A stretch of DNA of 64,000 bases from an uncultured Gammaproteobacteria bacterium. Lineage in GTDB: Bacteria > Patescibacteriota > Microgenomatia > JALYQM01. A model generated the notes under the pieces. That model had not been told where the DNA came from, ran no database searches, and saw only the letters and a program-made list of their open reading frames with translations. Made by a program: the position numbers and the translations under genes. The stretch covers positions 102,263 to 166,262 of the forward strand of contig CAZGHS010000001.1 of NCBI GenBank assembly GCA_964525495.1, in the 5' to 3' direction. Of this stretch, positions 4,929 through 42,020 are shown one piece after another; position 1 is the first letter of the stretch, and each line of letters begins with the position of its first letter.

Positions 4929-5099
4929 AGTTATTTAAGCCGCTGAAGAAATATTTTAAAATTGACCTTCTTTGACATACAATTTGTCAAAGCAGAGTTT
5001 CTACGCGCATATGTTGCGCGAAACGCGCCTTGGCTGAAAGCCATAAGTACTCTTGGAGTGTGTCAATGTAAAATATTTCAAAAGAAGGCTTAAACGTAT

Positions 5100-5393
5100 T
5101 TAAAACAGCGGCCGCTCTGGATGAATCATCTTCAGCACCACACCTACACACACTGCAATTATCACAAGCACAACAACCGCATACCCAATTCCCTTCCATA
5201 TAGATTTCTTACTCATCCGACTCCACAGCGCTCCTGCACCTAAAGCAGGAACAGAAAACCCCGCTATCAACACAGCTAAGATCTTTGCAATCGGAATAAG
5301 TATCAGAGCAGGAAGGAATATGATTCCATACGAGTTTTCAGGTACAATAAAAGCAATACAGAGAAACGCAATCGCAAACACGAGGGAATACAT
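5100..5393 (-). CDS. hypothetical small membrane protein
   Basis: 97 aa, two hydrophobic helices; abuts start of divergent gene with zero spacer, so real status uncertain. Confidence 0.3.
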   Translation of the reverse strand: MYSLVFAIAFLCIAFIVPENSYGIIFLPALILIPIAKILAVLIAGFSVPALGAGALWSRMSKKSIWKGIGYAVVVLVIIAVCVGVVLKMIHPERPLF

Positions 5394-9309: not shown

Positions 9310-10893
9310 TCACAATCCCAACCGATTACTCATCTCACTACCAGTCTCGAAAAGCTCAGGGTCGCTACCACCGTCTTGCTGAACCCGTAATACATTATCC
9401 GGATCTTCTAAATACGTCGCAATCTTATAGTCAGTACCATCCGAGCGGAAGAAATAACCAGCTACAACTTCTTCACCAGCACTATTAATCATAGTCTGAC
9501 CATTCAACGGATCAACAGGCAAAGTAGCCAAATAAGAACTCAAATCAAGCTTAATCCATCCCTTACCTTTTGCATCTCGCAAAGTTGCACTCTCCGTGGC
9601 AGCAATAGAAGAACACGCAGTATTAGTTTTGGCACCACGACATACTGGAAGGTTTACTATAGTCGTAGTAGCTATCGTAGCATCTATAGCCTTACGCAGC
9701 GTAACCAAATCAGTCAATCGAACTGAGTCCCGAGACTTTTTCATCAAACTCGATGAACTATCATTTTGCATAGTCTGCATATATTCTTGTGTTATCTCTT
9801 CGATAGTTTTGGCGTCGGTCGGAGCAGTAATATTCATAGGCATATTATAATTCTTGAATCGAGCTGAAATAGCTACCGATCCCGATTGTGCTGACATTTC
9901 TTTATCATCTATCCGAATAATCGTCTCAAACTTATACAAATAGTCATCTTTTTTATCCAACCACAGATGAAAATCTGTTTTCCCGATCAATGCCAAAGGC
10001 TCATCAAGTGTCTGTAATTCATATTCCGGAATAGCTGAATCAGTAATAATTGGATAAACCTCAGTCAAAAACTGCTTAAATACCACAGGATCAATCCGCA
10101 CAACATAATGCACTGCAGTCTTACCATCAATCACTTCATCAGGGTTACTCGTATCAAACTTCATAAACCTATGCTTCGCATAAATTAATTTAATAGTTTC
10201 CTGATTTTCCCTTAATTTCGCAGCGCCAGACGCATCACGCAGAGAACCAAAAGAACTTGTCGAAGGATTAGTCGCAACCCCCAACATACTATAATTAGAT
10301 GCCTCTTCCGGTATTGCAATCCATTTACCTTTAAACAAATCGAGCTGTGTCAAATCCATACCCAAGTTAGGTAATGAATTTAATTTCACATATACTTTTT
10401 TATCCTTCACAATTCCCTGACCATCAAACATATATTCTGGTTGATTAGGCACATTAATCCGAGCACCAAATGCCAATGCTGAAGCAGGGTTCGCTTTATC
10501 GTTCAAATCAGATTGGCCTCTCATCGTCAACTCATACCGCCCACCCTCACCTGCTGCCTGCAAAGGATCCACTGACAACATCTCAGAAAATATTCCCTTA
10601 TCTGAGACTTGTGTTTGCGAACTTGAAGAAGCATCCACACTTACTTTAATCTCTCCTTCATACTCGATAGACTTCATGTTCTCCAAATGAAGCAACGCAT
10701 TTTCAATTTTCTTCTCTGGCGAATTAACGAGATAAAAATATGCAGCTACACTTCCTACTCCCACCAAAACAAAAACAATAGCAACGATCACAGCTATCAA
10801 GCCTTTTTTAGAAGATTGTCGAGGCGGTTCCGGAGTATACGTAACCTGTGAATAAGTAGTGGACGGTGTTGGTTGTAATGATTCTGTATTCAT
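9310..10893 (-). CDS. secreted/anchored protein with C-terminal type-IV-pilin-like domain
   Basis: Start moved to Met at 10893 because an intrinsic terminator and a promoter lie inside the 5' extension of ORF 9310..11016; signal-anchor (LIAVIVAIVFVLVGVGSVAAYFYL); C-terminal RDSVRLTDLVTLRKAIDAT ... 2 Cys ... resembles the globular part of pseudopilins. Confidence 0.55.
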   Translation of the reverse strand: MNTESLQPTPSTTYSQVTYTPEPPRQSSKKGLIAVIVAIVFVLVGVGSVAAYFYLVNSPEKKIENALLHLENMKSIEYEGEIKVSVDASSSSQTQVSDKGIFSEMLSVDPLQAAGEGGRYELTMRGQSDLNDKANPASALAFGARINVPNQPEYMFDGQGIVKDKKVYVKLNSLPNLGMDLTQLDLFKGKWIAIPEEASNYSMLGVATNPSTSSFGSLRDASGAAKLRENQETIKLIYAKHRFMKFDTSNPDEVIDGKTAVHYVVRIDPVVFKQFLTEVYPIITDSAIPEYELQTLDEPLALIGKTDFHLWLDKKDDYLYKFETIIRIDDKEMSAQSGSVAISARFKNYNMPMNITAPTDAKTIEEITQEYMQTMQNDSSSSLMKKSRDSVRLTDLVTLRKAIDATIATTTIVNLPVCRGAKTNTACSSIAATESATLRDAKGKGWIKLDLSSYLATLPVDPLNGQTMINSAGEEVVAGYFFRSDGTDYKIATYLEDPDNVLRVQQDGGSDPELFETGSEMSNRLGL

Positions 10894-21699: not shown

Positions 21700-22689
21700 A
21701 TGAATTCAATGAGCAAAACAGAGCACCCTCTCAGCTGGCACGCAATAGCGCGCGTAGTTATAACAATATCCGCAATTTATCTCGCCTGGCAGCTTTACGG
21801 CACCTTACTAATGATATTCGTATCAATCATGCTCGCCGCCGCTTTCTATCCTATCGTTATGAAGCTAGCCGAGAAGCGGATTTCTATAACTCTTTCATCA
21901 ATATTTGTAGTTCTTACGCTCATATTGCCGATCATAATTATTCTCTTCACGATTCTTCCTGGAATCGTTCAGCAATTCCCAGAAATAGTTAGAACAGTCG
22001 ACAGAGCAGTCAAAGAATCCACCGTCCTTCCACCAACCTTGCGCGATATTGACCTCACTCAATACGCACAAAATGCTGCAAGTTACGTAGTCCAATCAAC
22101 ATCAAAAATCACAAACTTCGTGGGAACGTTCTTTACGATTATATTCTTAACCCTATATTTCCTAATCGACTCCAAACGTCTTAATGAACTCATCCTTTCC
22201 ATAATTCCAGAGGGCAGTCGCACCAAAGCAGAAAAGCTCACGGAAGAGCTCACTAAAATTAACGGTCAATATATTCGAGGGAATCTTCTTATCTCACTAG
22301 TCTGCGGAATATCTATATTCATTGGACTATTACTTATCGGCGTCCCTTATGCTGCTCCACTCGCTCTCTTTGCCGCCCTTGTTGATATGCTTCCACTGAT
22401 CGGCGCAATCATCGGTGCGATCCCAGCTATCATCATCGCGTTCGCAGTCAACCCCACAGCTGGAGTTCTGACACTCCTACTTTTCATCATCTATCAACAA
22501 ATTGAAAACAATATTCTCTCACCTAATATCTATAACAAAGCTCTTAACCTCTCTCCAGCACTTAGCTTCATTGCCGTACTGATAGGTGGATCAATAGCAG
22601 GTATAGTCGGCGCATTTATAGCTCTTCCGATTGCAGCAAGCATTCCAACAATAGTTAAATATGTACAAAATTATGATGAGGTTAAGTAA
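21700..22689 (+). CDS. AI-2E family transporter (PerM/UPF0118)
   Basis: 329 aa, 8 TM; conserved ALVDMLPLIGAIIGAIPAII segment. Confidence 0.8.
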   Translation: MNSMSKTEHPLSWHAIARVVITISAIYLAWQLYGTLLMIFVSIMLAAAFYPIVMKLAEKRISITLSSIFVVLTLILPIIIILFTILPGIVQQFPEIVRTVDRAVKESTVLPPTLRDIDLTQYAQNAASYVVQSTSKITNFVGTFFTIIFLTLYFLIDSKRLNELILSIIPEGSRTKAEKLTEELTKINGQYIRGNLLISLVCGISIFIGLLLIGVPYAAPLALFAALVDMLPLIGAIIGAIPAIIIAFAVNPTAGVLTLLLFIIYQQIENNILSPNIYNKALNLSPALSFIAVLIGGSIAGIVGAFIALPIAASIPTIVKYVQNYDEVK

Positions 22690-23549
22690 CGACTCTTCTG
22701 CCCACACTCCACACTACATCCACCCTGGAATTTAGTATCACATGCTTCACAACACACGATCTGCTTATTGCACAACACATTGGAACAGTTAATCATCCGC
22801 GCGCTCTTTTCTTCACAATGCACACAAGTTGAAACAAGCACTTCCTTATCAGGAGAATTTACGTCCACGGCAATTCGTTTATCAAACACATAACACTTAC
22901 CCTCCCAACCATCGTCTGGGAACTCGTTGCCGTACGTCACAATTCCACCATGCAACTGTTTCACATCCTCGAAACCCATCTTCTTCATCAAAGCTGAAGC
23001 TTTCTCACACCGCACGCCACCAGTACAATACGTCACAATCTTTTTCTGTTTCAAATGAGCCATCTCAACAAGCGCTTGTGGGAAATCACGGAAATTATGA
23101 ATATCTGGTGTGATCGCATTACGAAATTTTCCTACCATCGACTCATAATTGTTGCGCGCATCGACCAAATAATATTCCTCACCGCTGTGCATCAAAGCAT
23201 TTAACTCTTCGGGACTAATATATTCAGCAGCTTCATCAGCACTCACAGTAGTACCTACACCCAACGTCACTATTTCTTCCCGTACCACGACACGCAATTT
23301 AGGAAACACCTGTTCCTCTGAGTCGCTCTCCTTGAACTCCATATCAGCGAATCGCACATCGGCACATATCTCGCGCTTATACTCTTCACATGCTTCCACA
23401 CTCCCACAGACAGTACCATTCAATCCTTCTTCAGCAAGCAAAATACGTCCATGTAAGCCAAGACGTTCACAAAGCGCAAACTGACTATCCCGCAAAGCTT
23501 GCGGATTTTCAATTTTTACATATTTGTAATACAACAGTACGCGAAACAT
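22671..23549 (-). CDS. rhodanese-domain protein of the YceA/TrhO (tRNA U34 hydroxylase) family
   Basis: Start at MFRVLLYYKYVKIENP (matches YceA ISFYKYFHIADP); rhodanese active-site YCTGGVRCEKAS; C-terminal Cys-rich zinc-ribbon-like tail. Confidence 0.75.
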   Translation of the reverse strand: MFRVLLYYKYVKIENPQALRDSQFALCERLGLHGRILLAEEGLNGTVCGSVEACEEYKREICADVRFADMEFKESDSEEQVFPKLRVVVREEIVTLGVGTTVSADEAAEYISPEELNALMHSGEEYYLVDARNNYESMVGKFRNAITPDIHNFRDFPQALVEMAHLKQKKIVTYCTGGVRCEKASALMKKMGFEDVKQLHGGIVTYGNEFPDDGWEGKCYVFDKRIAVDVNSPDKEVLVSTCVHCEEKSARMINCSNVLCNKQIVCCEACDTKFQGGCSVECGQKSRYLTSS

Positions 23550-24112
23550 TATTTTCCTCCTAAATACCACAGAAGCGTTTCATACTCTTTCCACTGTGGT
23601 ACTAGCCGATCATCACGTTCATAAATCATTCTTCCAAAGTCATTCTGTGTTACCAATTCCAAACCATTCATCTCCTGTGTATCAAACTTAAAATCAAACA
23701 GATTTACATCGCTCTTCCAAATATATACATCATGAAACTCGTTATTGATATACTCAGGTATTTTTTTCGTTGAACCCTTAAAGCTCGTCTTATCCGTCAT
23801 CAGAAACTCTAACTGGTCAACAGGAATCGTAAGCCCGACCTCTTCCATAGCCTCTCTGACCACAGTCTCTTCAGCAGTCATACCAGCTGAAATATGTCCG
23901 ATCACTGTCGCTTCCATCAGGTTCGGCTTAAGATAAAAATCTGCAGATCGTTTTTGCAAAAATATATCACCGTAGGTATTCACGATCCACAAATGGACTG
24001 TCCTGTGCCAAAGACCCTCAGTATGCACTTCGATTCGATTCTTAACAACACCGGTATTCTGACCGCGCTCATCCAAGACATCTAGCTGTTCAGTAGAACT
24101 ATTCATCGCCAA
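23549..24112 (-). CDS. NUDIX hydrolase
   Basis: 187 aa; Nudix box GHISAGMTAEETVVREAMEEVGL. Confidence 0.75.
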   Translation of the reverse strand: MAMNSSTEQLDVLDERGQNTGVVKNRIEVHTEGLWHRTVHLWIVNTYGDIFLQKRSADFYLKPNLMEATVIGHISAGMTAEETVVREAMEEVGLTIPVDQLEFLMTDKTSFKGSTKKIPEYINNEFHDVYIWKSDVNLFDFKFDTQEMNGLELVTQNDFGRMIYERDDRLVPQWKEYETLLWYLGGK

Positions 24113-28864: not shown

Positions 28865-29020
28865 CTAGTTTTTAGACTCTCTTCGAGGCTCCTCCTGGAT
28901 CGGCTCCAAAAAAAGAAATGAGTGAGAGGGCTGATCTAAACCAGCGCCTTTTGTCTCCTCCTGCATATCAGCTATGATTTCCGCAATCTCTCGATCGCCA
29001 TGAACGTCATCATTGTGCAT
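28865..29020 (-). CDS. hypothetical small acidic protein (51 aa)
   Basis: Unlisted ORF MHNDDVHGDREIAEIIADMQEETKGAGLDQ... preceded by gggaggag SD; lies between the SOD terminator and galE. Confidence 0.25.
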   Translation of the reverse strand: MHNDDVHGDREIAEIIADMQEETKGAGLDQPSHSFLFLEPIQEEPRRESKN

Positions 29021-29047
29021 AATAATAGGCTCCTCCCTGAATAAGAC

Positions 29048-29072
29048 AAAAAAAGAGCGACCTCTCAGTCGC
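29048..29072 (-). terminator. rho-independent terminator of the SOD gene
   Basis: 5-bp GC stem gcgac/gtcgc, 6-nt loop, followed on the minus strand by T7. Confidence 0.5.
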
Positions 29073-29110
29073 CCTGCTTATTCAATTCAAGTATAATAAA
29101 AAATCTCGCT

Positions 29111-29788
29111 TTAATGACCACAATTGCCTCCACAGCCACAACCTTCACCTCCACACGCACAGCCTTCTTCAGTTTCATCACACCCACATCCAACAACAAT
29201 TTCCCAATTCTCTTCTACCTTTTTCCAATCCAAATTCTTCAAAAATGCTTCAATATACTTTGCGCGAGCTGCACCATGATCAATAAAATAAGCATGCTCA
29301 TATGTATCTAAAGCCAAAACAGGAGTCGCGTTCCATACAGGGAATGTATTCTGCGCATCGCCCAGATAGTTAAACAAATATCCATAATCATGATCATACG
29401 CAAGCCATACCCAGCCTCGCGCACCAATAGCAGTCGCTTTCAAATCCTTTTCCCAGTTCTCAAATGAACCAAAGTCTTTAACAATCTGGTCCAACAGTCC
29501 ACCTTCTGGTCGACCACCAGCTCCACCTAAATGACTGAAATAAATCTCATGATTCTTAACGCCGCCGATTGCAAACGTAAGCTCCATTTTCAATTCACGG
29601 ATCAACGAATAAACCTGATTTGCAGCTGCATAATCCTCATCTGTCAAAGCCTTCAATTTCTGAGTTATCTCATTATATTTCTTTACATAGCCTTCATACA
29701 GTTTGTAATGTTCGGTCATAGTCTTTTCGCTAATACCGTCCATTTTCAAACTTTCTTCGCGCAATTTCATTGGTTCCAGCGTTTTCAT
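29111..29788 (-). CDS. Fe/Mn superoxide dismutase with C-terminal Cys/Gly-rich tail
   Basis: Start trimmed to MKTLEP (ggagga SD) from ORF 29111..29914; conserved LEP, GG..NH, and D-x-x-EHAYF-x-DH metal ligand region; 25-aa tail CGCDETEEGCACGGEGCGCGGNCGH. Confidence 0.8.
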   Translation of the reverse strand: MKTLEPMKLREESLKMDGISEKTMTEHYKLYEGYVKKYNEITQKLKALTDEDYAAANQVYSLIRELKMELTFAIGGVKNHEIYFSHLGGAGGRPEGGLLDQIVKDFGSFENWEKDLKATAIGARGWVWLAYDHDYGYLFNYLGDAQNTFPVWNATPVLALDTYEHAYFIDHGAARAKYIEAFLKNLDWKKVEENWEIVVGCGCDETEEGCACGGEGCGCGGNCGH

Positions 29789-29902
29789 AAATGCTCCTCC
29801 AGTAACAACATTTGTTATTATCATAATAACAAATTTGACGGCAAACTTGCAACAAGGGCTGTCGTATTGAACAATGTGAAGAAAAAACTTATAGTAGATA
29901 CA

Positions 29903-32900
29903 ATGAAGAAACATTGCCTAAAATACACACATGAACCAATCAAAAAAGTAACATTTGCACTAAAAAAAATCGCTAACTTTTTGTTTAAAAAACAGATGGT
30001 AATTTCCCGAATACGATTTAATTTGTTTGGTGCAGTAATGTTATCGATTGGAGCAATAATCGGCTCATATGTAACTGTTACAAAAATATTAATCCCATTT
30101 GCATTTGCTTCAGACTCTACACAATCCTGGAATTTTTCCACAAGTGGTGACTATACCCTCTCTGACACATCATTAGCCGAAGTAGCAGGATCTAGTGCAA
30201 AACTAAAAGTACAAAATTATTCTGATGCAGCAAACACTGCAGCTCTTTTTCACTTTGATGAGTCCTCCGGAAACCCCACTGATTCATCGAGCAACGCCAA
30301 CGCAGCAACAGCCAGCAATCTAACTTTTGCTACAGGAAACTTTAACAATGCGGCAGATTTTAACGGATCGACATCAAGCGTATCGGTTGCCGATTCAGCT
30401 TCACTTTCACTAAGCTCGTCAAATACTGTTGAGGCTTGGACAAAGTTTGATTCTTCTTTTTCGGCAGGCAGTCACTCACAGCGCCAAGGTGTAGTCGACA
30501 AAGGCCAATACCAACTTTACTACGACAATGAAACAGGTAAATTAACCTATGAATTAGCTAATTCATCTGCAACATCCTGGACCCAAGTAGCTGGAAATGA
30601 TGTCAATGGAAGCTGGGATCTCGATGGTCAGTTAGCAGCGCATGCAATGACTTCAGTTGGGACAGATTTGTATGTAGGGCTAGGAAATGCTACTGGTGAT
30701 GCTGAAGTCTGGCGCAGAAGTGGTTCGACTTGGACTAAGGTGGGTGGAGATGGACTTAACTCTGGCTGGGCGTCTTTGACTTTTGAAAGCGTGCTATCCC
30801 TGGCCAGCGATGGAACAGATGTCTATGCAGGTTTGGGTATAACTGCGGGTGACGCTGAGGTCTGGAAATATGATGTATCCGAAGGAACGTGGAGTAAAAT
30901 CGGTGGCGACGCAGTTAACTCATCTTGGGCGGTTAATACATATGAAGGTGTGTACTCACTCGTCTGGCAAGGATCGACCCTCTATGCTGGGCTTGGACTA
31001 ACTGCTAACGATGCAGAAGTGTGGTCGTGGAATGGTAGTGCTTGGACCAAGATTGGTGGCGACAGCACCAACTCTGGTTGGACTACTAATTTTGAATATG
31101 CTTACAGTATGGTGCACGATGGCACATACTTATACGCAGCTTTGGGCGCGACGGCTGGAGATGCTGAAATCTGGAGATGGAATGGAACTGCTTGGACACG
31201 AATCGGCGGAGACGCAATTAATTCTAGTTGGGCAGATGCGACGTATGAATTTGGACTAAGTATGACGTATGTTGGAGGCATCCTGTACGCTGGACTGGGG
31301 ACGACGGCTAACGAGGCAGAAGTGTGGTCATGGAATGGTTCTGCTTGGACACAGGTCGGTGGAGATAGTTTGAACTCTGGCTGGACTACTAATTATGAAG
31401 GTGTCTACACGCTTAAGAATGACGGTACAGATGTGTACGCTGGTTTGGGTGCTTCTGGAGGAGACAATGAGGTATGGAAACTCACTGTAGGGACCACTAC
31501 TTGGAGCAAAATTGGTGGAGATGGCACAAACTCCAGCTTTACCAGTACTACTCATACTATCGTTGACACCATGCATTTTATTGGCACGACTCTGTATGCA
31601 GGTATTACCTCAGGAAATGCTGGGCGCACCGGCGAAGTATGGAGCTTTGCCAGCGGCAGTTGGACGCAAATTGGCGGTGACTATATCAATTCGAGCTGGG
31701 GATTTAGAGGATTGCAGGCTGCTAATGTCATGACAGTTTCTGGTTCTTATTTGTATGCAGGTACTGGTACAACTGGCAGTGCTGGTAACGCCTTAGTTTG
31801 GAGATATGATGGAAGTACTTGGACCTTGATTGGAGGACAAGGCATAAATAGCAGCTGGACAGCCAATACGTACGAGGATGTGCTCTCAATGATCAGTCAT
31901 AATGGCACACTGTATGTTGGTCTTGGCTCTTCGGCTAATGAAGCTGAAGTATGGTCGTGGAACGGTAGTGCTTGGACACAAATTGGCGGCGATAATTTGA
32001 ATTCCGGATGGACGACTAACTATGAAGAAGTAAATACATTGGCGACCGATGGAACCTATCTGTATGCTGGACTTGGATTGAGTGCCAATGATGCTGAAGT
32101 CTGGCGTTGGAATGGTACTATATGGGGGAAAATTGGTGGAGATAGTACAAACTCTGGATGGACTACTGGCTTTGACCGAATTACATCAATGGCCATGTAT
32201 GCGGGTCAGTTATATGTTGGACTTGGTTTGACCGCAGGAGAAGCAGAAGTCTGGACTTGGAATGGATCTATTTGGGCGAAGATCGGCGGAGATACGGTGG
32301 GTTCCAGCTGGGATTCAAGCAATTTTGAGCATGTCGACAGCATGATCCCTCTGAATGGTGTGCTGTATGCTGGTCTTGGAACTGGCACGGGAGATGCTGA
32401 GGTTTGGTCATACAATGGAAGTACCTGGACTCAGATTGGTGGAGATGATTTAAATTCTGGATGGACATCGGGAACTTACGAGCGCGTCAGAACTCTTGTT
32501 GCTTACAACGGCGATCTCTACGCAGGCATTGGAAACGGCACCGGTGAAGGTGAGGTCTGGAGATACCGAAGTGGAACTTGGTCTCAGATTGGTGGAGACA
32601 GCTTAAACTCAGGATGGGATAACATTGTTGAAGAAGTTCAGAGTTTTAGTGTGTATCAAGGAAAACTGTACGCAGGATTGGGCAATACACAAAATGTTGA
32701 TGCAGCAATCTGGTCCTATGGGAATAATGCGTACATGCAATCAAGCACCGCTTCTCAAAATACAAGCTGGCACCATGTTGCAGCTACTTATAACGGATCG
32801 ACCATGAAAATCTTTATTGACGGAGTTCAAGACAACTCGACAAGTGCCTCAGTCACCATTCCGGACACTGCGCATAGTTTGCTGCTTGGCACTACCTATG

Positions 32901-35821
32901 CCAGCCGAGAATCCGGTAAGGCACAAGGCTATTTCCAAGGACTGATTGATGAACTTCGCCTTTCTGACACAGCACGAACTACATTTACGACTTCTCCTTA
33001 TACTGCAGCAGCTCAAACTGTCCAACCAACGGCCGCAGTTTTTACTTCAGGAGTTGAAAACTTTGATGACTTTACCGTGTCAGAAACTACCAATGGTGGA
33101 TCAATAAATTATAGATTATCCATTGATGGCGGCACTACTTGGAAATATTATAGTGGAGGTACTTGGACAACATCAGCTTCAACGGCGCAAGTAAATGATG
33201 CAAGCACCATCGATACAAATATTAGTACACTGACTGCAGGCTCAGGAGGTATTCTGTGGCAAGCGGTACTAGATGGTGATGGCACGCAACAAGTTACGCT
33301 CAATAGCGTTTCAATTGGCGCAGTGCATGACTCTACTGTTCCCGTTGCACCTGATACATTAACGTCTTTATCTGCATTAGCCGGTTCAGCCATTACTACA
33401 AATACATGGTATACGCATAGTGGTCCTTATTTCTCATGGAGTGGCGCGACCGACACTGACGGCTCTGGTATTTGGGGATATTATGTTTATTTTGGCACTG
33501 ACAATACAGCAGATCCACAAACAGCAGGAAATTTTCAAGTTGCATCAACATTTACTGCATCAAGTTTATCCAGCGGATCTACCTATTATTTGAGAATCCG
33601 AGCTCGTGATAATGCACAGAATGTGAGCTCTATCTGGTCTGCCTTCACATACAAGTTTGATAGCACTGCTCCAACAAATCCTGCATCGATTACGATAAGT
33701 CCTGCCGGATACTCGGCAACTAATGATTTTACCTTTTCTTGGCCAGCAGGAACTGACGGTTCGTCTGGAATTGCAGGCTATCAATACAAAACTGCAACTG
33801 CGTCAGGATCGCTATCTGACTGGTCGTCAACGACAGCATCAACCAGCATTAATATTCCGAATGCTGCATATCAAACTGATGCAAATACTTTTTATCTAAG
33901 AACGATTGATACTTCGGGTAATATTAGCTCCGAAACTACTGCAACCTACTACTTTGGCGGCGAAGGTCCTTCTCTACCTCAGTTCTTAGCGGTTACACCC
34001 TCTTCAAGTACCACTAACTCATTTGCATTCTCCTGGGATCCTCCTATTACCTTCTCTGGGGATGAAGATGAATTAACCTATTGTTATACAGTCAATACCT
34101 TGCCGACACTTAACTCGTGTACATTTACCAGCGAAGGCGCGACATCACTTTCTGCAAGTTCGTTTGCTACTCAAGTCGGACTTAATACATTTTACTTGGT
34201 GGCAAAAAACCCTGCAACGGCAGGCGGCTCTATTAACTATGGCTCCTATACAAGCGTTACCTTTACTGCCGATACCTCGGCACCTGGAATTCCACAGAAT
34301 CTAGATATTGGAGATATCTCAATTAAAAGTTCTGAAACATGGCGACTAGCGCTATCTTGGAATGCACCTAGCGATACAGGATCAGGTATTTCAAGTTACA
34401 AAATACATAGATCGACAGATGATTCAACCTATTCTTTAATCTCCTCGACAACAGGCCTGTCTTACGTAGATACTGACTTAGAGGAAGAAGAATATTATTA
34501 TAAGATTAAAGCCTGCGATAGCGTTGATAACTGTGGCGCGTTTTCAAGTTCAGTCTCATTGGTACCAACTGGCAAGTATACCGAAGCTGCTGGATTATCT
34601 TCTGGTCCAACGGTTTCAGCTATTACTACCAAGAAAGCGGTGATAAGTTGGGTCACAGATCGCGATTCTGACTCAAAAATTGCATATGGTACAACCTCAG
34701 GATCATACTTCACTTCTGAACCATCAAATTCAACTCAAACAGACGATCACTCAATTACTTTATCTGAACTAACTCCTGGAACAACCTACTACTACAAAGC
34801 TAAATGGACAGACGAAGACGGTAATACAGGAATATCCTCCGAAAAAACATTCGCTACTGACTCAGCACCAACAGTAACTGATCCCAAACTAAAGCGAGCA
34901 GGTTTGACCGACGTAGACTTAGAGTTTAAATTGAAAGGCTCATCAAAAGTGAAAGTGTACTATGGAATCACAACTGCGTTTGGAGGTGTAAAGGAATTAG
35001 CTACCTCTACGTCAGAATCCACCTACACCTTGAATATTGATACTCTTCTATATGGTACTAAGTATTTTTATAAGATTAACGGATTTGATAACGAAGATAA
35101 TGAATACGAAGGAAGTACATTAAGTTTTGAAACACTTCCCCGCCCTAAGATTGCAAATGTACGTATTCAAGAAGTCCGGGGAACCGCCCAAACGACTGCG
35201 CTAATTACCTGGACTACCAATACTGAAACATCCTCAATAGTTACCTATTATCCAAGTGATGATGCAGGCGCCGCTCGAGACGAAGTTAATGTCACCCTAG
35301 TGAAGCAACACCGAGTGGTATTGCGTAATCTGCTACCAAAGCGCGACTATAGCCTAGTAGTAAAAGGACGAGATAAATCTGGAAACGAAGCTGCATCCGA
35401 ACCTCAAAAATTCACAACAGCAACAGATACTCGCCCACCACAGATCCAAGATATGCGCGTCGAAGGCAGCACTCAAGCAGTTCGTGGTGGAAGCTCTCAA
35501 GAACAAACTGCACAATTAGTTGTATCATGGAATACGGATGAGAATTCAACCTCACAGGTCGAGTTCGGTGAAGGCACGGGTACCACATATAGCCAGAAAT
35601 CTCAGGAAGATACGAACCTTACTACAAATCACGTTATAGTTATATCTGGGCTAACTCCATCACGTGTCTATCATCTTCGTGCCCTATCTAAAGACTCAGT
35701 GGGAAATGCGGGAAGCTCCGTTGATACAGTTACTATTACACCAAAGGCGTCAGACAGTGCACTAGATCTAGTTATAACAAATTTACAAGGAATCTTTGGA
35801 TTTATTAATGCACCAAGGTAA
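29903..35821 (+). CDS. giant cell-surface protein: N-terminal signal-anchor, LamG-like domain interrupted by about 13.5 W/G-rich 52-aa repeats, then multiple fibronectin-III-like domains
   Basis: ORF 29531..35821 trimmed to first Met downstream of the divergent SOD gene (alt. start 29996); TM LFGAVMLSIGAIIGSYVTV; LamG_3-like halves (LFHFDESSG...TVEAW and SWHHVAATYNGSTMKIFIDG...GLIDELRLS) flank the repeat array; FN3/PKD-like modules with SW...G...Y.Y motifs in the C-terminal 900 aa. Confidence 0.85.
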   Translation: MKKHCLKYTHEPIKKVTFALKKIANFLFKKQMVISRIRFNLFGAVMLSIGAIIGSYVTVTKILIPFAFASDSTQSWNFSTSGDYTLSDTSLAEVAGSSAKLKVQNYSDAANTAALFHFDESSGNPTDSSSNANAATASNLTFATGNFNNAADFNGSTSSVSVADSASLSLSSSNTVEAWTKFDSSFSAGSHSQRQGVVDKGQYQLYYDNETGKLTYELANSSATSWTQVAGNDVNGSWDLDGQLAAHAMTSVGTDLYVGLGNATGDAEVWRRSGSTWTKVGGDGLNSGWASLTFESVLSLASDGTDVYAGLGITAGDAEVWKYDVSEGTWSKIGGDAVNSSWAVNTYEGVYSLVWQGSTLYAGLGLTANDAEVWSWNGSAWTKIGGDSTNSGWTTNFEYAYSMVHDGTYLYAALGATAGDAEIWRWNGTAWTRIGGDAINSSWADATYEFGLSMTYVGGILYAGLGTTANEAEVWSWNGSAWTQVGGDSLNSGWTTNYEGVYTLKNDGTDVYAGLGASGGDNEVWKLTVGTTTWSKIGGDGTNSSFTSTTHTIVDTMHFIGTTLYAGITSGNAGRTGEVWSFASGSWTQIGGDYINSSWGFRGLQAANVMTVSGSYLYAGTGTTGSAGNALVWRYDGSTWTLIGGQGINSSWTANTYEDVLSMISHNGTLYVGLGSSANEAEVWSWNGSAWTQIGGDNLNSGWTTNYEEVNTLATDGTYLYAGLGLSANDAEVWRWNGTIWGKIGGDSTNSGWTTGFDRITSMAMYAGQLYVGLGLTAGEAEVWTWNGSIWAKIGGDTVGSSWDSSNFEHVDSMIPLNGVLYAGLGTGTGDAEVWSYNGSTWTQIGGDDLNSGWTSGTYERVRTLVAYNGDLYAGIGNGTGEGEVWRYRSGTWSQIGGDSLNSGWDNIVEEVQSFSVYQGKLYAGLGNTQNVDAAIWSYGNNAYMQSSTASQNTSWHHVAATYNGSTMKIFIDGVQDNSTSASVTIPDTAHSLLLGTTYASRESGKAQGYFQGLIDELRLSDTARTTFTTSPYTAAAQTVQPTAAVFTSGVENFDDFTVSETTNGGSINYRLSIDGGTTWKYYSGGTWTTSASTAQVNDASTIDTNISTLTAGSGGILWQAVLDGDGTQQVTLNSVSIGAVHDSTVPVAPDTLTSLSALAGSAITTNTWYTHSGPYFSWSGATDTDGSGIWGYYVYFGTDNTADPQTAGNFQVASTFTASSLSSGSTYYLRIRARDNAQNVSSIWSAFTYKFDSTAPTNPASITISPAGYSATNDFTFSWPAGTDGSSGIAGYQYKTATASGSLSDWSSTTASTSINIPNAAYQTDANTFYLRTIDTSGNISSETTATYYFGGEGPSLPQFLAVTPSSSTTNSFAFSWDPPITFSGDEDELTYCYTVNTLPTLNSCTFTSEGATSLSASSFATQVGLNTFYLVAKNPATAGGSINYGSYTSVTFTADTSAPGIPQNLDIGDISIKSSETWRLALSWNAPSDTGSGISSYKIHRSTDDSTYSLISSTTGLSYVDTDLEEEEYYYKIKACDSVDNCGAFSSSVSLVPTGKYTEAAGLSSGPTVSAITTKKAVISWVTDRDSDSKIAYGTTSGSYFTSEPSNSTQTDDHSITLSELTPGTTYYYKAKWTDEDGNTGISSEKTFATDSAPTVTDPKLKRAGLTDVDLEFKLKGSSKVKVYYGITTAFGGVKELATSTSESTYTLNIDTLLYGTKYFYKINGFDNEDNEYEGSTLSFETLPRPKIANVRIQEVRGTAQTTALITWTTNTETSSIVTYYPSDDAGAARDEVNVTLVKQHRVVLRNLLPKRDYSLVVKGRDKSGNEAASEPQKFTTATDTRPPQIQDMRVEGSTQAVRGGSSQEQTAQLVVSWNTDENSTSQVEFGEGTGTTYSQKSQEDTNLTTNHVIVISGLTPSRVYHLRALSKDSVGNAGSSVDTVTITPKASDSALDLVITNLQGIFGFINAPR
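30640..32720 (+). repeat. in-frame tandem repeat array, 156-bp period, about 13.5 copies (consensus ...LYAGLGxTAxDAEVWSWNGSAWTxIGGDxxNSGWTTNYExVxS...DGT)
   Basis: visible at DNA and protein level; several copies nearly identical (e.g. around 31010, 31320, 31945). Confidence 0.8.
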
Positions 35822-35832
35822 TTAAAAATTGT

Positions 35833-36609
35833 ATGGATAGTATCATTCAGGTATCACATATTGCGAAATCGTTTCACCTTGGAGTACAGGAGCTTCCTGT
35901 CCTAAAAGATATATCTTTCGAAGTAGAGCGTGGAGATTTTACGCTTATTCTCGGACCCTCAGGTTGTGGAAAATCTACATTGCTCCATACAATTTTAGGA
36001 CTAGAACCACCTTCAACTGGCGATGTGTTCATACTAGGTACAAATCTATATCAAGAACACCCCACAGAAGACGACCGATCTATATTTCGTAAAAAACATA
36101 TTGGAATGGTCTATCAGCAACCAAACTGGATTAAATCATTAAACGTCATGGAAAACGTAGCGTTCCCGTTAGCTCTTGTTGGCATGAATAAAATTGAAAG
36201 CGCTAAAAAAGCATGGGAATTACTGAGTATAGTAGGTATGCAAAATTGGTTAAACCATAAACCAACCGAACTATCTGGAGGACAACAACAACGTGTGGCA
36301 CTTGCCCGCGCCCTGATTAATGACGCCGAGATTATTATTGCAGACGAACCTACAGGTAATCTTGATTACGAATCTGGTCAGCATCTCATGACCATGCTGG
36401 CAGATTTATCAAAAAAAGGAAAAACAATTATCATGGTTACCCACGATCTTGAATACACCAAATTTGCACGAAGCGCAGTCCGTATGTTAGACGGCAAGGT
36501 TGTAGACGTAGTCAGTGGCGATGCGAAATTGAAGTTAGACAGCGAAGTACACGGTAAAAGAGGAACAGATACTCTAGAACCCGTTAAGAAAATCGAGGTG
36601 TCAGGATGA
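35833..36609 (+). CDS. ABC transporter ATP-binding protein (MacB/LolD/FtsE-type)
   Basis: 258 aa; Walker [10 protein letters not shown], signature [15 protein letters not shown], Walker [13 protein letters not shown]; starts 12 nt after giant-protein stop. Confidence 0.9.
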
Positions 36610-38642
36610 GAATTCTATCATTTCTAAAAAAAACAGGACTCATTGTTCTTAACCTTTTGACGTTTCAGTTTCTTCTAGCAGCGTATCTCCTAAATTCATT
36701 GCTTGTCGTAAACATTCTCCGTATGCCATTCCTACCCAAAAAACTTATTGCTCTAATCGAGCGAATTATCGGTCGGTCATACGATCAAGCAATTAAATTG
36801 TTTGACCGACCAGGTAAGGGAACCATTATGCGCTCTGATTTAATTGAATTAGCAATTCGCAACATGCGTTCAAAAATTACTCGCTCCATTATTACAATAA
36901 GCGGCATGTCGATCGGAATTGGTGCAATAGTTTTTCTAGTATCAATAGGATATGGGATTCAAAACTTGGTAACTACACGCGTTGCACGTCTTGATGAAAT
37001 GCAGCAAGCAGATATCGTTCCACAACCAGGTGGAAAAGTCCAAATTAATGACAAAACCATCTCTGATCTCGAAGCATTACCTAATACAAAACTTGTTCTC
37101 CCACAAATATCAGCCGTAGGAAAAATAACTTTTAATAATGCTGTTTCAGATATGGCAGTCTATGGGGTAACCGCTAGCTATCTCAAACAATCAGCAGTAC
37201 AACCAGTTGAAGGTAAGATATTTGAAAGCAACGATCTAGTTTCTGCGGTATCAACGTTGCCAGACAACAAAGATATAAAAGAATCAAGCGCAAGTGGAGT
37301 TCTCGGAGATTCAATACGAAAAGTCTCGTTTCAAGTATATCCAGATGTATGGGTAAAAATCCGCGAAAAACCAACAAGCACATCACGAATACTTGGCTAT
37401 GCTCGAAGATCAGAGGAAATAACTTACGGCAGTGAGGTCTGGGGCGATTATTACCCTGACGACACATCTCCTAATACAGATGATAATGGAAACAAACTAA
37501 GTAGATGGATATCCGCTGAAATAGAGATCTGGGACAACAAAGCCTGCAGTGATACTGAAACTGGATGTGTTGATGGAAAATATTTAAAACGGGTTGATAC
37601 AGATGGCTTTGGAAAACGCGTTGCAGGATACGTTGCATCCACTTTTTTAGCAGTTTCAGAACCGAATCCAGATGATCCTGCTGTTTTAGGTGTGACCTTT
37701 TCTGAAGTACTTGCCGAGTCTACTGGATCAGGTAGTCTCACGGAAACGCAAGAATCAACGGCATCCGGAGATGCTGCCATCATGGCTCAATTAGCATCAG
37801 AATCTGGAATACTATCAGAAAAACCAGTTAAAAAGATTGCTCTTTCATCTTCTTCGGTAAAAGAAGCCGTTGTTAATTATGCAATGTTAAAAGTCCTAGG
37901 ACTAAAGGAATCCGAAGCAGTAGGTAAAACATTTGACGCATCTTTTGTCTTAACAGGCAACCAGCTTGACGGTAAAGATGATAAGGCAGAATCAGTGCCC
38001 GCTCCCTATAAAATAGTCGGTGTTATCCCTGATGATAAAACGCCATACTTCTACGTACCATTCGTAGATCTTCGTAATCTAGGTGTAATCAATTATTCAC
38101 AGATAAAACTTGTTGCTAAAACTCAGGAAGATCTTCCTAAGCTACGCAAACAAATAGAAGGGTTGGGATATGGTACGCAATCGGTCGTGGATACAGTTGC
38201 CCAGATTAACAGTATATTCGGTACAGCACGAACTATTTTAGCGTTACTTGGAATGGTTGCACTTTCAATTGCGTCGCTTGGCATGTTTAATACATTAACC
38301 GTATCTCTCCTTGAACGTACACGAGAAGTTGGACTCATGAAAGCAATGGGAATGAGATCATCCGAAGTTCGAGAACTATTTCTTACGGAATCAATGATGA
38401 TGGGTATTTTTGGAGGATTATTTGGACTATTAACTGGCTATGTTGCAGGTGAAGGTTTAGGAGTTATTTTGAGTCTTATAGGATTATCAAAAGGAGCAGG
38501 ATATCTAGATATTGCCTATATCCCTCCATTCTTTATAACAATAATTGTTGTGCTCTCACTAGTAGTAGGAATTGCAACAGGAATTTACCCTGCACGTCGA
38601 GCTACAAAAATATCTGCGCTAAACGCATTACGATACGAATAA
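36606..38642 (+). CDS. ABC transporter permease, MacB/FtsX-like with large extracytoplasmic domain
   Basis: 678 aa; ATGA start/stop overlap with ATPase gene; MacB-type N-terminus (LIELAIRNMRSKITRSIITISGMSIGIGAIV), about 400-aa periplasmic insert, C-terminal FtsX 3-TM module; possible extra N-terminal TM if 36606 start is real (alt. start 36831). Confidence 0.85.
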   Translation: MRILSFLKKTGLIVLNLLTFQFLLAAYLLNSLLVVNILRMPFLPKKLIALIERIIGRSYDQAIKLFDRPGKGTIMRSDLIELAIRNMRSKITRSIITISGMSIGIGAIVFLVSIGYGIQNLVTTRVARLDEMQQADIVPQPGGKVQINDKTISDLEALPNTKLVLPQISAVGKITFNNAVSDMAVYGVTASYLKQSAVQPVEGKIFESNDLVSAVSTLPDNKDIKESSASGVLGDSIRKVSFQVYPDVWVKIREKPTSTSRILGYARRSEEITYGSEVWGDYYPDDTSPNTDDNGNKLSRWISAEIEIWDNKACSDTETGCVDGKYLKRVDTDGFGKRVAGYVASTFLAVSEPNPDDPAVLGVTFSEVLAESTGSGSLTETQESTASGDAAIMAQLASESGILSEKPVKKIALSSSSVKEAVVNYAMLKVLGLKESEAVGKTFDASFVLTGNQLDGKDDKAESVPAPYKIVGVIPDDKTPYFYVPFVDLRNLGVINYSQIKLVAKTQEDLPKLRKQIEGLGYGTQSVVDTVAQINSIFGTARTILALLGMVALSIASLGMFNTLTVSLLERTREVGLMKAMGMRSSEVRELFLTESMMMGIFGGLFGLLTGYVAGEGLGVILSLIGLSKGAGYLDIAYIPPFFITIIVVLSLVVGIATGIYPARRATKISALNALRYE

Positions 38643-38644
38643 GA

Positions 38645-40042
38645 CTAACCGACGCTGCCTTCCATGTCCATTTGAATCAACCGATTCATTTCAACAGCAT
38701 ATTCCATTGGGAGTTCTCGCAAAATAGGCTCAACAAAACCCTGAACAATCATCGCAGCAGCTTGGTCACCAGATAATCCACGAGACATTAAATAAAACAA
38801 TTGCTCTTCACCAAGTTTTCCAACACTCGCCTCATGTCCGATTGTTACATCCTGCTCATCAATATGCATCGTCGGATACGTATCCGAAATAGAATGATCA
38901 TCCAAAACCAACGCATCACACTTCACGGTCGACTTCACATTCTTACAATTTTTATTCACCTTCAAAAGTCCACGATACGTTGTACGTCCACCATCCTTAC
39001 AAATAGATTTAGAAGTTATTAACGATGTAGTATTTGACGCCAAATGCACAGCCTTTGCGCCAGCATCTTGATGTTGTCCTTTACCAGCAAAAGCTAAAGA
39101 CAATACTTCACCGCGAGCACCTTCTTCTTTCAAATACACGCTTGGATACTTCATAGTCAATTTTGAACCTAAGTTTCCATCAATCCACTCCATAGTCGCG
39201 TCTCGATACACAAACGCGCGTTTTGTGACCAAGTTATACACATTCTGTGACCAATTCTGAATTGTCGTATACCGCACACGTGAACCAGCTAAACAGACAA
39301 TCTCAACCACTGCAGAGTGCAAAGAATTAGTCGTGTAAATTGGAGCGCTACATCCTTCAACATAATGCACAAACGATCCCTCATCAGCAATAATCAATGT
39401 TCTTTCAAACTGTCCTGCGTTCGCTGCGTTAATTCGGAAATATGCCTGCAAAGGAATATCTACATGTACACCTTTGGGCACATAGATAAACGAACCACCA
39501 CTCCACACTGCAGTATTCAACGCCGCAAATTTATTATCTCCAGGGGGAATAATCGTGCCAAAATATTTCTGAACAATTTCAGGATATTCTTTAACTGCGG
39601 TATCTGTGTCAGTAAATATGACGCCCTTATCTTCCCACTGCCCCTTCAAATTATGATAGACGACCTCTGAGTCATATTGTGATGAAACACCCGCTAGAAA
39701 CTTTTTCTCGGCCTCTGGGATACCAATCTTATCAAAGGTCCGTTTAATATCGTCCGGCACATCTTCCCATTTGCGTTCTGTCTTATCCGAAGCGCGCAAG
39801 AAGTAATGAATGTCTTGAAAATCTATTCCAGACAGTTCTCCACCCCACGAAGGCATTTTCTTATTCAAAAAAATCTCGTAGGCTTTCAACCGTATCTGCA
39901 ACATCCAGTCAGGTTCGTTCTTATACTTGGAAATCGCTTCCACTACTTCGCGCGACAAACCCTTCGGCAACTTCACTGAATAATTCTCATCACTCTCAAA
40001 AAAACCGTATTGATATTGTCCGACTGGATTTTGATTACTCAT
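38645..40042 (-). CDS. sufB: Fe-S cluster assembly protein SufB
   Basis: 465 aa; full-length SufB layout including C-terminal [23 protein letters not shown]. Confidence 0.9.
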
Positions 40043-40742
40043 TATTAACCACCTTAATACGCCGCTTGGGAACTTTTTGTAAAGAAACGGACATATTTTT
40101 TACTTCATTAGTATGTGGTAATAGCAAATATTCTGATAAATTTACTAATTCACCTGATTCATCCTGAAATCCCGTAGTTGATTCACTATAACCATGTTCA
40201 AACACCTCCACGCGCGTTGGCAAAAATGCTAAATCTCTCCCCTGAGGAATCCAGATATTACCTGTCAAATCCGACTCACCAGTGGACGCGGCATTGCCAA
40301 GTAGTCTACGTGGAATATTAGAAAACTCAACCTTCATCAAAAAATAAGCTGGATTAAGCGTAACTTCTCTAGTGCGAAGATCAGCTTCCATAATTGATCT
40401 AAATCCAAGCGGCGCGTAAGGAGCAATCTCTGTAGCCCTTTCATCAAAGGATGAAAAATACCGTGCTAGGAACAATGATGGAAGAGGTGCAACAGTTAAT
40501 CGAAGATCACCAACACTTTTAGGACCGTTACCATATTGAAATGGAATATCTACTCTATACATTAATTCAGGATCAACTGGATATTGGTTATCTACGGCAT
40601 CAATAAACGTAGAAGCCACACGTCTCAATTGATTCCATTTTGATGGAGGCATCGCGTAAAGTGGGTACGCCTGTCCTTCTGGAAAATCTAACCGCATTGA
40701 GATATCAAAACTATCTTTATGTATCAAAACATTTTCGCTCAT
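40035..40742 (-). CDS. hypothetical protein embedded in suf operon (divergent SufD-like?)
   Basis: 235 aa; 4-nt overlaps with both neighbours; no clear SufBD C-terminal motif, so SufD identity is unproven. Confidence 0.45.
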
Positions 40743-41212
40743 ATATGTACCAATTTCTTAATTGCTTGTAATGATAACGGCCTACAATTATCTGTATCCA
40801 ATGAAGTAACCTCTATCCATTCAACAATTTCCGATTCTCCATTTTGTAAAATATGTTCAACATTTCTATCACCCAAAGCCACTACTTTATAAAAATCTAT
40901 CTTAGAATCAAAATATATATTATTGTCGACATCAAAAAAATTATTTCTTACTTCAAGTATAGGCGTTAGATCAACATTGACTACTGAATAGCCTGTTTCC
41001 TCTTCAAACTCTCGATTAATAGCTGTCGCCACATCTTCACCAGATTCTATTTGCCCGCCTGGCACTTCCCACTTATCAGAACCTTCCGGTCTAACAACCA
41101 AAACTCGACCATCCTGTATACAAACACCACGAGCAGAAAACCGCTGCTTCACGTCACAACCATCAGGTTTAATATGCTCATTTCCAAATTGATCTTTAAA
41201 CAATTCCCTCAT
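40739..41212 (-). CDS. NUDIX hydrolase
   Basis: Nudix box VPGGQIESGEDVATAINREFEEETG; overlaps sufC 3' end. Confidence 0.7.
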   Translation of the reverse strand: MRELFKDQFGNEHIKPDGCDVKQRFSARGVCIQDGRVLVVRPEGSDKWEVPGGQIESGEDVATAINREFEEETGYSVVNVDLTPILEVRNNFFDVDNNIYFDSKIDFYKVVALGDRNVEHILQNGESEIVEWIEVTSLDTDNCRPLSLQAIKKLVHI

Positions 41213-41939
41213 ACCCTTTATCTTCCACATATTCGCTTAATTCTCGTCCACCTTGTTTTATATTTCTACCATTGGAAACAATCGTCACGACATCAGGCTC
41301 AAGAAATTTAAGAATTCGCATATAATGGGTAATTATCAAAACAGAAGATTCTGGATTCGCTTCTTTATACTCTTTCACACGGTATGCAACGCTCTTCAAC
41401 GCATCCACATCCAAACCGCTATCCACTTCATCAAGTATCACAAGCTTTGGCTTTAACACAGCCATCTGCAAGATCTCGTTCCGCTTCTTCTCACCACCAC
41501 TAAATCCTTCATTCAAGTTTCGCTTCTGCATTCCCACATTCATTCCCAACTTCTGGACCTCTTCTTCCAAAGCAATTTTAAACTTCAGCAAAGTCAAAGG
41601 TTTCTCGTCTCGTCCTTGGGCGATCTCACGAGCTGCTTGTCGTAAAAAGGAATCTACAGGCACTCCAGGAATCTCCTGGGGATACTGGAAGCTCAAAAAC
41701 AAACCTTTTTTCGCCCGCACATCAACAGCCATCTCTAGTAAATTCTCACCCTGAAACTCTACTTCACCCTCGGTCACAGTATAACGAGGATGTCCAGCCA
41801 AAGCATACGCCAGAGTCGATTTGCCTGAACCATTCGGTCCCATGATTGCATGAACCTTACCGGCATCAACCTGCAAATCTAGACCCTTCAATATCTCTTT
41901 TTTCTCAACAGAAACATGTAAATTGCGTATTTTTAACAT
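41196..41939 (-). CDS. sufC: Fe-S cluster assembly ATPase SufC
   Basis: Start trimmed to MLKIRNLHV; Walker A GPNGSGKST, ABC signature, SufC-like length. Confidence 0.9.
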   Translation of the reverse strand: MLKIRNLHVSVEKKEILKGLDLQVDAGKVHAIMGPNGSGKSTLAYALAGHPRYTVTEGEVEFQGENLLEMAVDVRAKKGLFLSFQYPQEIPGVPVDSFLRQAAREIAQGRDEKPLTLLKFKIALEEEVQKLGMNVGMQKRNLNEGFSGGEKKRNEILQMAVLKPKLVILDEVDSGLDVDALKSVAYRVKEYKEANPESSVLIITHYMRILKFLEPDVVTIVSNGRNIKQGGRELSEYVEDKGYEGIV

Positions 41940-42020
41940 ATCCACAAGATTATACAAAAAAGGCATACAAAAGGCCACCTTGTTCTTATGGGTAAGGAGG
42001 CCTAACTAAATATCAATATA

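Follow-up and report, generated by a model that had tools for sequence, protein, structure and literature searches.

A cysteine-rich C-terminal tail on SodFM4-type superoxide dismutases of a Patescibacteria clade

The Fe/Mn superoxide dismutases (SODs) were divided into the SodFM1-5 subfamilies by Sendra et al. in 2023 (PMC10172142). SodFM4 is set apart by its HXXXHH motif, in which the C-terminal His is lost. Members sharing one altered motif have been expressed and assayed, such as C. botulinum Sod4_2 (EHYKLYDGYV) and Sod4_3 of a Parcubacteria member of the candidate phyla radiation (CPR; EHLKLYAGYV), and a Parachlamydia SodFM4 with the same motif (HFKLYQGYV) has been expressed (PMC10172142). 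In this survey, the CPR Parcubacteria enzyme is described as active and Mn-preferring, and only one crystal structure is counted for SodFM4. No tail is present on the Sod4 enzymes that its supplement lists, and cysteine is not mentioned in its main text (PMC10172142). Here, I describe an SOD gene of this subfamily in a 64,000-nucleotide stretch from an uncultured bacterium (contig CAZGHS010000001.1, positions 102,263 to 166,262), which is called the window below and to which all coordinates refer unless another locus is named. The encoded protein ends in a Cys-rich tail, which is apparently an undescribed, clade-wide variant on a known SOD subfamily. This conclusion is provisional; the literature searched, whose coverage was incomplete, especially for subscription journals, contained no account of an Fe/Mn SOD with a Cys-rich tail.

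The SOD coding sequence lies at 29111..29788 on the minus strand, from the start codon ATG at 29788 to the stop codon TAA at 29111-29113, and encodes 225 amino acid residues; it is supported by the translated open reading frame (ORF), Pfam, a PDB match, an AlphaFold2 (AF2) model, and Foldseek. A longer ORF of 267 residues was rejected in favor of the 225-residue start because the homologues begin at M-x-x-x-LEPMK. The first-pass annotation of the window had assigned 29048-29788 to the gene. The gene part of this range stands, while 29048-29110 is a 3′ untranslated region with a terminator-like hairpin and is not coding. Translation confirmed the C-terminal end read in that annotation, CGCDETEEGCACGGEGCGCGGNCGH, a Cys/Gly/Glu-rich tail of residues 201-225 (29114..29188, minus strand), which was delimited by the codon table, the predicted local distance difference test (pLDDT) scores, and the homologues. 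The codon table gives seven Cys residues rather than the nine first counted. They form three CxC pairs and a terminal C-G-H, and they are the only Cys residues of the protein. At the Cys rate of the window (0.71% over 17,344 residues in 46 long ORFs), the chance of at least seven Cys in 25 residues is about 4e-10. In the AF2 model, residues 202-225 have pLDDT values below 50 and are predicted to be disordered. Tandem Repeats Finder detected a 21-nt (7-codon) tandem duplication inside the tail, E-G-C-(A/G)-C-G-G twice, at 29127..29167 on the minus strand (period 21, 2.0 copies, 85% matches).

It had been considered that the tail might be out of frame in the real transcript due to a sequencing error. 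Two observations contradict this. The nearest genome relative (locus L001), whose SOD is 76% identical, differs from the window in the tail by 12 synonymous and 4 non-synonymous codons, and all seven Cys residues and the terminal His are kept. This indicates that the tail is under purifying selection in the SOD frame. In addition, the same 678-nt gene was found, identical and with the same neighbors, in the Logan assembly of run SRR12762304. By these sequence comparisons, the tail is real and in frame.

Is the tail common among related SODs? The protein database contains 6,597 homologues of the window SOD, and the 121 closest 90%-identity clusters were surveyed for a tail, defined as at least three Cys residues after the conserved NLDW motif. 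A tail was found in 87 of the 121 clusters, with 3-10 Cys residues and most commonly four, while the core is Cys-free in 82 of the 87. In the Cys segments, Cys accounts for 34% of the residues, Gly for 20%, Glu for 16%, and Asp for 9%. Among the motifs, CxC is the most frequent (152 occurrences in the 87 tails), followed by CxxC (55) and CC (44), and a His residue lies inside the Cys segment in 28 tails. Although the length and sequence of the tail differ widely between lineages, motifs such as K-C-x-C-x-C-x-G-C-x-D-H-K and G-C-C-G-E-G-C-D-C are tightly kept within sub-clades. Thus, the view that such a tail is unusual holds against all characterized or crystallized Fe/Mn SODs and fails within this clade. 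The opposite possibility, that homologues would reveal a common feature of a described subfamily, is true for "common" and not for "described".

A neighbor-joining tree with Fitch parsimony groups the tail bearers in a single clade, in which the tail was gained once and lost about six times, and it is kept across the clade while the cores have diverged to about 60% identity. Among 150 representatives of the 50%-identity clusters, the tail was found on only two, and it is absent from the relatives in Armatimonadota, Limnochordales, Ignavibacteria, Acidobacteria, and Saccharimonadales. No other ORF with such a tail was found in about 860 kb of related loci. Most likely, the tail arose once, in an ancestor of the Patescibacteria clade, and its length has since shifted by short tandem duplications. 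Selection would then keep the Cys content of the tail and not its exact sequence.

Among the GTDB species genomes, the named tail bearers are all low-GC (guanine plus cytosine) Patescibacteria, Microgenomates, or Roizmanbacteria. Tails also occur in low-GC records titled "uncultured Gammaproteobacteria"; four of four examined have Roizmanbacteria-type synteny. The host of the window SOD is probably a Patescibacteria (CPR) bacterium. The GC content of the window is 41.5%. The records titled "uncultured Gammaproteobacteria bacterium" (L001, L010, L017, L033, L061, and other GTDB loci) have a low GC content and the gene order trmD-SOD-ABC-gltX or suf-SOD-mnmA, as in metagenome-assembled genomes (MAGs) of Roizmanbacteria and other Patescibacteria, and their titles are probably wrong. 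L001 is 80-89% identical to the window in SufB and MnmA.

No resemblance of the tail to a catalogued domain was found. With four different tails, neither Pfam nor NCBIfam yielded a match even at E ≤ 10, and the window tail had no PDB match at E ≤ 10. A probe made of two joined tails led to 18 word candidates, but none of them scored as a match.

In contrast to the tail, the core is that of a described enzyme family. The first-pass annotation had called the core intact, and this was confirmed by both Pfam domains, by the invariant ligands, and by a confident AF2 fold. Sod_Fe_N (PF00081) scored 31.7 bits against a cut-off of 27, and Sod_Fe_C (PF02777) scored 90.8 bits against 20.9. The former corresponds to an N-terminal alpha-hairpin domain (residues 19-87; 29528..29734, minus strand) that includes H27, Y34, H80, and the helix-1 motif, and the latter to a C-terminal alpha/beta domain (residues 94-194; 29207..29509, minus strand) that includes Q146, A159 at the D-2 position, D161, and H165. 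The proposed ligand set held against the known structures: the metal ligands H27, H80, D161, and H165 match the ligand positions of 1coj. They are invariant in an alignment of 84 homologues, as are L30, Y31, G33, Y34, G75, G76, N79, W126, Q146, A159, Y163, and E164. As for the motifs named in the annotation, GG..NH (G75, G76, N79, H80) and D...EHAYF (D161, H165) are present. The LEP near the N-terminus (residues 4-6) does not correspond to the canonical ALEP, since HMMER aligns it at the LP(Y/W) position and places the ALEP equivalent at L14-K-M-D-G-I-S.

The top PDB sequence match was 1coj, the Aquifex pyrophilus FeSOD (E=1e-37), which I take to be the sole SodFM4 crystal structure. An AF2 run with the 84-sequence alignment gave a mean pLDDT of 88.5, with the core above 90 and helices 21-46 and 62-85 at 94-98, while a single-sequence input reached only 36. 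Foldseek ranked 1coj first (template modeling (TM) scores of 0.81/0.86), with 1ma1 and human MnSOD among the top matches. There were 262 PDB matches at E ≤ 0.001, and the best 50 of the 262 were all Fe/Mn SODs. The structures 1coj, 1ma1, and human MnSOD are tetrameric, and long N-terminal helices of the kind found in tetrameric SODs are also present in the model. Thus, the SOD is probably a homotetramer. It is probably cytoplasmic; no signal peptide was found in the window protein. The scores for NCBIfam SodA (PRK10925; 48 bits, cut-off 363), SodB (PRK10543; 73 bits, cut-off 348), and haloarchaeal Mn-SOD (NF041312; 111 bits, cut-off 300) were far below the cut-offs; therefore, the window SOD is not an orthologue of any of the three.

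Helix 1 reads TMTEHYKLYEGYV, as first noted, and lacks His at the His30 and His31 positions. Its motif is E26-H-Y-K-L-Y-E-G-Y-V35, with no His after H27 in H27-Y-K-L-Y31-E. This change had been flagged as a replacement of the canonical HHxKHH. It is rather ordinary, since it is the published hallmark of SodFM4, common to the subfamily, and enzymes with the same motif are active; it should no longer be seen as unusual. The H-x-K-L-Y-x-G-Y-V of helix 1 is identical in C. botulinum Sod4_2 and CPR Parcubacteria Sod4_3. The resemblance to SodFM4 and 1coj includes the fold, 38% identity, the same four ligands, the lost HXXXHH histidines, and DTYEHAY in place of DxWEHAY. Judged by the helix-1 motif, Q146, and the closeness to 1coj, the window SOD belongs to SodFM4, and the gene product is an intact Fe/Mn SOD of the SodFM4 type. 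One difference from 1coj lies in helix 1, which is HFEAHYKGYV in 1coj and one residue shorter, from the ligand His to Tyr34, in the window clade. Both the 9- and the 10-residue His-to-Tyr forms are present among SodFM4 representatives. In the model, the i to i+7 spacing would put the His and the Tyr on one helix face, which fits the continuous helix 21-46. The main difference is the tail itself (25 residues, 7 Cys), which is on none of the assayed or crystallized SodFM4s in the supplement of the survey (PMC10172142).

The window SOD also has the minority state of the water-coordinating residue. Q146 in DAQNTF aligns with the His of 1coj DAHNVY, and this Gln is invariant in the window clade, while the residue is His in 75% of SodFM4 members and Gln in 25% (PMC10172142). 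A C-terminal Gln goes with Mn preference in 78% of cases, and Ala or Gly at D-2 is also associated with Mn preference (PMC10172142). Since the window SOD has both Q146 and A159 at D-2, it is predicted to be Mn-preferring or cambialistic. Superoxide dismutase activity may be expected by analogy with the assayed SodFM4 members that have the same motifs. Dismutation would proceed by the standard cycle of Mn (or Fe) at H27, H80, D161, and H165, with Q146 orienting the metal-bound solvent and Y34 gating the substrate funnel. Five tail-less SodFM4 relatives from non-CPR phyla (P0043, P0044, P0075, P0113, and P0118, two of them Ignavibacteria) have N-terminal twin-arginine (RRDFL) signal peptides, which implies periplasmic export of a folded, metal-loaded SOD.

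It is an old and still open question how Fe/Mn SODs come to bind the correct metal rather than a wrong one, and no dedicated bacterial metallochaperone is known. What might the tail do? The reading that fits best is a disordered thiolate metal-binding segment, and I consider it to have about an even chance of being correct. It is favored because of the Cys/Gly/acidic composition, the dominance of CxC, the frequent His, and the commonest count of four Cys, which suffices for one tetrahedral site, and also because of the disorder of the apo state and the long retention of the tail despite its fast sequence turnover. The 25-residue acidic, Gly-rich tail with its seven Cys and terminal His sits after the last helix and would fold into a thiolate cluster around Zn, Fe(II), Cu(I), Ni, or Co. 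Four tails per tetramer could then form a local metal buffer or filter, which would bar thiophilic metals from the catalytic site or store a small reserve in these reduced-genome bacteria. Mis-metallation of a SodFM active site by Zn has been documented for recombinant PAP9 (PMC8278866). The annotation had proposed a built-in metallochaperone or storage tail, or a redox-sensing module. The metal-binding and redox ideas still lead, while a chaperone for the catalytic metal is weakened because thiolates are poor Mn(II) ligands and Q146 with A159 predicts Mn. Since Mn is not thiophilic, buffering or filtering of Zn, Fe(II), Cu(I), or Ni is favored over the role of an active-site chaperone.

Several points weigh against metal binding as the function. 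Cys is a poor Mn(II) ligand, so the tail can hardly serve as the chaperone of the predicted catalytic metal. Metal binding by the tail is suggested by composition and motif statistics, and no match of the tails to a metallothionein or another metal-binding module was found in Pfam, NCBIfam, or PDB. About six lineages within the clade have lost the tail, and therefore it is dispensable. No metal-transport or thiol-redox gene consistently lies beside the tail-bearing SODs. Lastly, an enzyme that makes H2O2 would tend to oxidize its own thiols, which fits a redox role at least equally well.

Such a role would be that of a thiol/disulfide (or Zn-thiolate) redox switch or a sacrificial thiol buffer, and I regard it as rather unlikely, if worth keeping in mind. 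H2O2 or superoxide would oxidize the CxC pairs, possibly with a release of Zn, as in the C-terminal CxC...CxxC switch of Hsp33, a precedent for redox-driven Zn release. This would alter the oligomerization, stability, or activity of the SOD, or would consume the peroxide that the enzyme itself makes. CxC pairs do dominate the tails, the bearer produces H2O2, and, since the core is Cys-free, redox-sensitive thiols are confined to one detachable segment. On the other hand, the flanking Asp and Glu residues should raise the thiol pKa and lower the reactivity, the conserved terminal His and the Cys4-type sub-motifs look more like metal ligands, and no thioredoxin or peroxiredoxin partner is kept nearby. 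Another conceivable role is that of a rubredoxin-like Fe(Cys)4 or Fe-S center, possibly bridging subunits; at least four Cys per tail is the rule. Such a center could transfer electrons to re-reduce the catalytic metal in the manner of a superoxide reductase, or it could donate or sense Fe. Reductive removal of superoxide would be of advantage to anaerobes, as many Patescibacteria are described to be. In L001 and L082 (a Patescibacteria MAG), which represent the lineage of the window, the suf genes for Fe-S assembly are closely followed by the SOD gene on one strand, while the suf genes of the window are 9 kb off. This suf adjacency is missing in the Roizmanbacteria-type tail bearers (trmD-SOD-ABC-gltX), and no Fe-S-related Pfam domain was found in the genes that separate suf from SOD. 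Moreover, the CxC spacing differs from that of classical rubredoxin and ferredoxin motifs, and the sequence and Cys number of the tail are too variable for a precise redox center. Thus, an Fe center is very improbable. The specific version in which it feeds electrons to the Mn/Fe site, making the enzyme in part a superoxide reductase (no O2 produced) or a superoxide/iron sensor, is slightly more improbable again. If true, it would be a new solution on the SodFM scaffold, convergent with the desulfoferrodoxin-type enzymes, in oxygen-sensitive Patescibacteria.

A tail without a metal would also be conceivable, as a protein-protein or surface anchor or as a cross-linker of SOD tetramers via intermolecular disulfides. 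The window tail is disordered in the AF2 model, and a disordered C-terminal SodFM tail has been proposed to anchor a complex in plant PAP9/FSD2 (PMC8278866). Yet no partner gene is conserved beside the tail-bearing SODs, the extreme Cys enrichment is left unexplained, and the cytoplasm is reducing while the SOD has no signal peptide. An anchor is therefore as improbable as an Fe center. Least credible of all is a neutral low-complexity extension by slippage, or an artefact of assembly or frameshift. The 21-nt duplication and the wide variation in length and sequence between lineages would agree with such an origin. The excess of synonymous over non-synonymous differences to L001 with every Cys kept, the clade-wide retention with conserved sub-clade motifs, the identical sequence in the SRR12762304 assembly, and the very low chance of the Cys count all speak against it, and this explanation is already largely refuted.

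Taking the metal-binding segment as the preferred reading, the tail can be compared with known systems. The tails resemble metallothioneins and genetically encoded (Glu-Cys)n phytochelatin analogues: about 30% of the residues are Cys, CxC, CC, and CxxC motifs prevail, aromatic and hydrophobic residues are lacking, and the apo state is disordered. The many Glu-Cys and Asp-Cys dipeptides also recall phytochelatins. They differ from metallothioneins in having no family match, in being shorter (3-10 Cys), fused to an enzyme, and more acidic, and in that metal binding is here suggested by composition. The C-terminal tail of E. coli SlyD and the His/Cys-rich tails of Ni-handling proteins such as HypB and UreE bind several Ni, Zn, Cu, or Co ions for storage or delivery. 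The SOD tail is likewise a disordered Gly/Cys/His/acidic tail on a folded protein. In contrast, the SlyD tail is dominated by His and the SOD tail by Cys with at most one or two His; moreover, the SOD carries out redox catalysis, being neither a chaperone nor a GTPase, and has no hydrogenase or urease context. The periplasmic Cu,Zn-SODs of Haemophilus and related pathogens have an N-terminal His/Met-rich metal-capturing extension, and domain 3 of the eukaryotic copper chaperone CCS uses CXC. These share with the present case a flexible metal-binding segment on, or docking to, an SOD for metallation. They belong to another SOD family with another metal, and direct hand-over is less plausible here because the predicted Mn is not thiophilic. 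PAP9/FSD2 also has a lineage-specific flexible C-terminal extension on a SodFM, absent from the SODs in PDB (PMC8278866). That tail is acidic, is proposed as an anchor to the plastid RNA polymerase, and is on another SodFM subfamily, and the word cysteine is missing from the main text of the paper (PMC8278866).

Thus, a large and deep Patescibacteria SOD clade keeps a thiolate-rich appendage on a Cys-free, peroxide-producing core, an apparently unreported natural experiment. An expression system for SodFMs, E. coli lacking sodA and sodB, has already been published. The appendage could turn out to be a metal filter or buffer built into the enzyme, a redox switch, or a site of electron transfer. 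Its presence also offers an easy way to recognize a Patescibacteria SOD lineage by sequence.

The genomic context was compared among the tail bearers. In the window, the SOD gene is divergent from a giant gene on the plus strand (29903 or 29996 to 35821; about 1,970 residues with LamG and fibronectin-III (fn3) domains), and the intergenic region lies at 29789..29902. The divergence had been noted before; the shared region of 115 bp is rather 114 bp with the ATG at 29903 or 207 bp with the ATG at 29996. The giant gene is followed on the plus strand by a MacB-like ABC ATPase gene (35833-36609) and an FtsX/MacB_PCD permease gene (36606-38642). Next comes a suf-like cluster on the minus strand (38645-41978), 9 kb from the SOD gene, with genes for a SufC-type ABC ATPase (41196-41978), a NUDIX protein (40739-41230), a 235-residue protein without a Pfam match (40035-40742), and SufB/D (38645-40042). 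In L001 and L082, suf, small ORFs, SOD, and mnmA are all on one strand, and SufB and MnmA of L001 are 89% and 81% identical to those of the window. No Pfam domain was found in the genes between suf and SOD in these two loci, and the giant-protein block is absent from the neighborhood of the SOD in both, the closest relatives. Thus, the block (29903-38642) reads as a local insertion between suf and SOD in the window.

It had been suggested that the SOD gene and the divergent operon of the giant surface protein and the ABC genes are regulated together, in response to oxidative stress from a host. The two genes are only 114-207 bp apart, and the same layout is found in the second assembly. The adjacency is missing in L001 and L082, though, and the Roizmanbacteria synteny is different. 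Moreover, a plus-strand promoter-like site (29867-29895) does not overlap with the SOD promoter candidate described below; the two sites are back-to-back, and no shared operator-like repeat was noted. Co-regulation is therefore improbable. The Roizmanbacteria-type genomes have trmD, SOD, an ABC-2 transporter gene, and gltX, with or without the SOD tail. The ABC ATPase gene 3′ of the SOD in this lineage was considered as a partner of the tail and was rejected, since the synteny is lineage-wide and occurs also with tail-less SODs. No conserved functional neighbor of the tail-bearing SODs was found across the compared loci. Because the neighbors differ between relatives, no conserved partner explains the tail, and the proposed co-regulation with the surface protein lacks comparative support.

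Some details of these loci may be added. The giant protein has an N-terminal transmembrane or signal segment, repeats of about 55 residues (W-T/S-K-I-G-G-D..N-S-x-W), one Laminin_G domain, and several fibronectin-III-like domains. In L082, the second gene downstream of the Cys-tailed SOD, following mnmA, encodes a ZIP-family metal permease (9465-10253 of that locus), of which no homologue was found in the window. The only other long ORF of the window with at least four Cys in the last 30 residues encodes a TrhO/UPF0176-type rhodanese (22671-23570, minus strand), whose Cys-rich Rhodanese_C is a known domain. A second Cys-rich gene at 4987-5199 (minus strand) was considered and rejected. This 70-residue ORF, starting with MEGNWVCGCCACDNCSVCRCG, overlaps out of frame with a 97-residue ORF for a hydrophobic membrane protein (5100-5393, minus strand), of which it is probably a frame shadow.

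The SOD gene has its own set of putative expression signals on the minus strand. Inspection of the sequence shows a ribosome-binding site, GGAGGAG (29794..29800), which is separated from the ATG by 5 nt. A consensus scan yielded a sigma-70-like promoter candidate (29823..29852), TTGCAA and TATTAT with an 18-nt spacer that includes TG, a candidate by its 9 of 12 consensus matches. Downstream, a terminator scan detected an intrinsic-terminator-like hairpin (29047..29075), AGGGCGACTGAGAGGTCGCTCT (29054-29075) followed by a T-run, 36 nt 3′ of the stop codon. The hairpin has a 9-bp stem, and the 86-nt 3′ region folds with -21.7 kcal/mol (z = -2.1). ARAGORN found no tRNA gene in the 64-kb window, and no Rfam family reached the gathering threshold there. 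Directly 3′ of the terminator lies a 51-residue acidic ORF (28865-29020, minus strand) without a Pfam match, which was also called as a gene on the Logan contig (L081). In L001 and L082, small acidic ORFs of 125 and 113 residues, respectively, which are not related to it, are found instead, directly upstream of the SOD gene.

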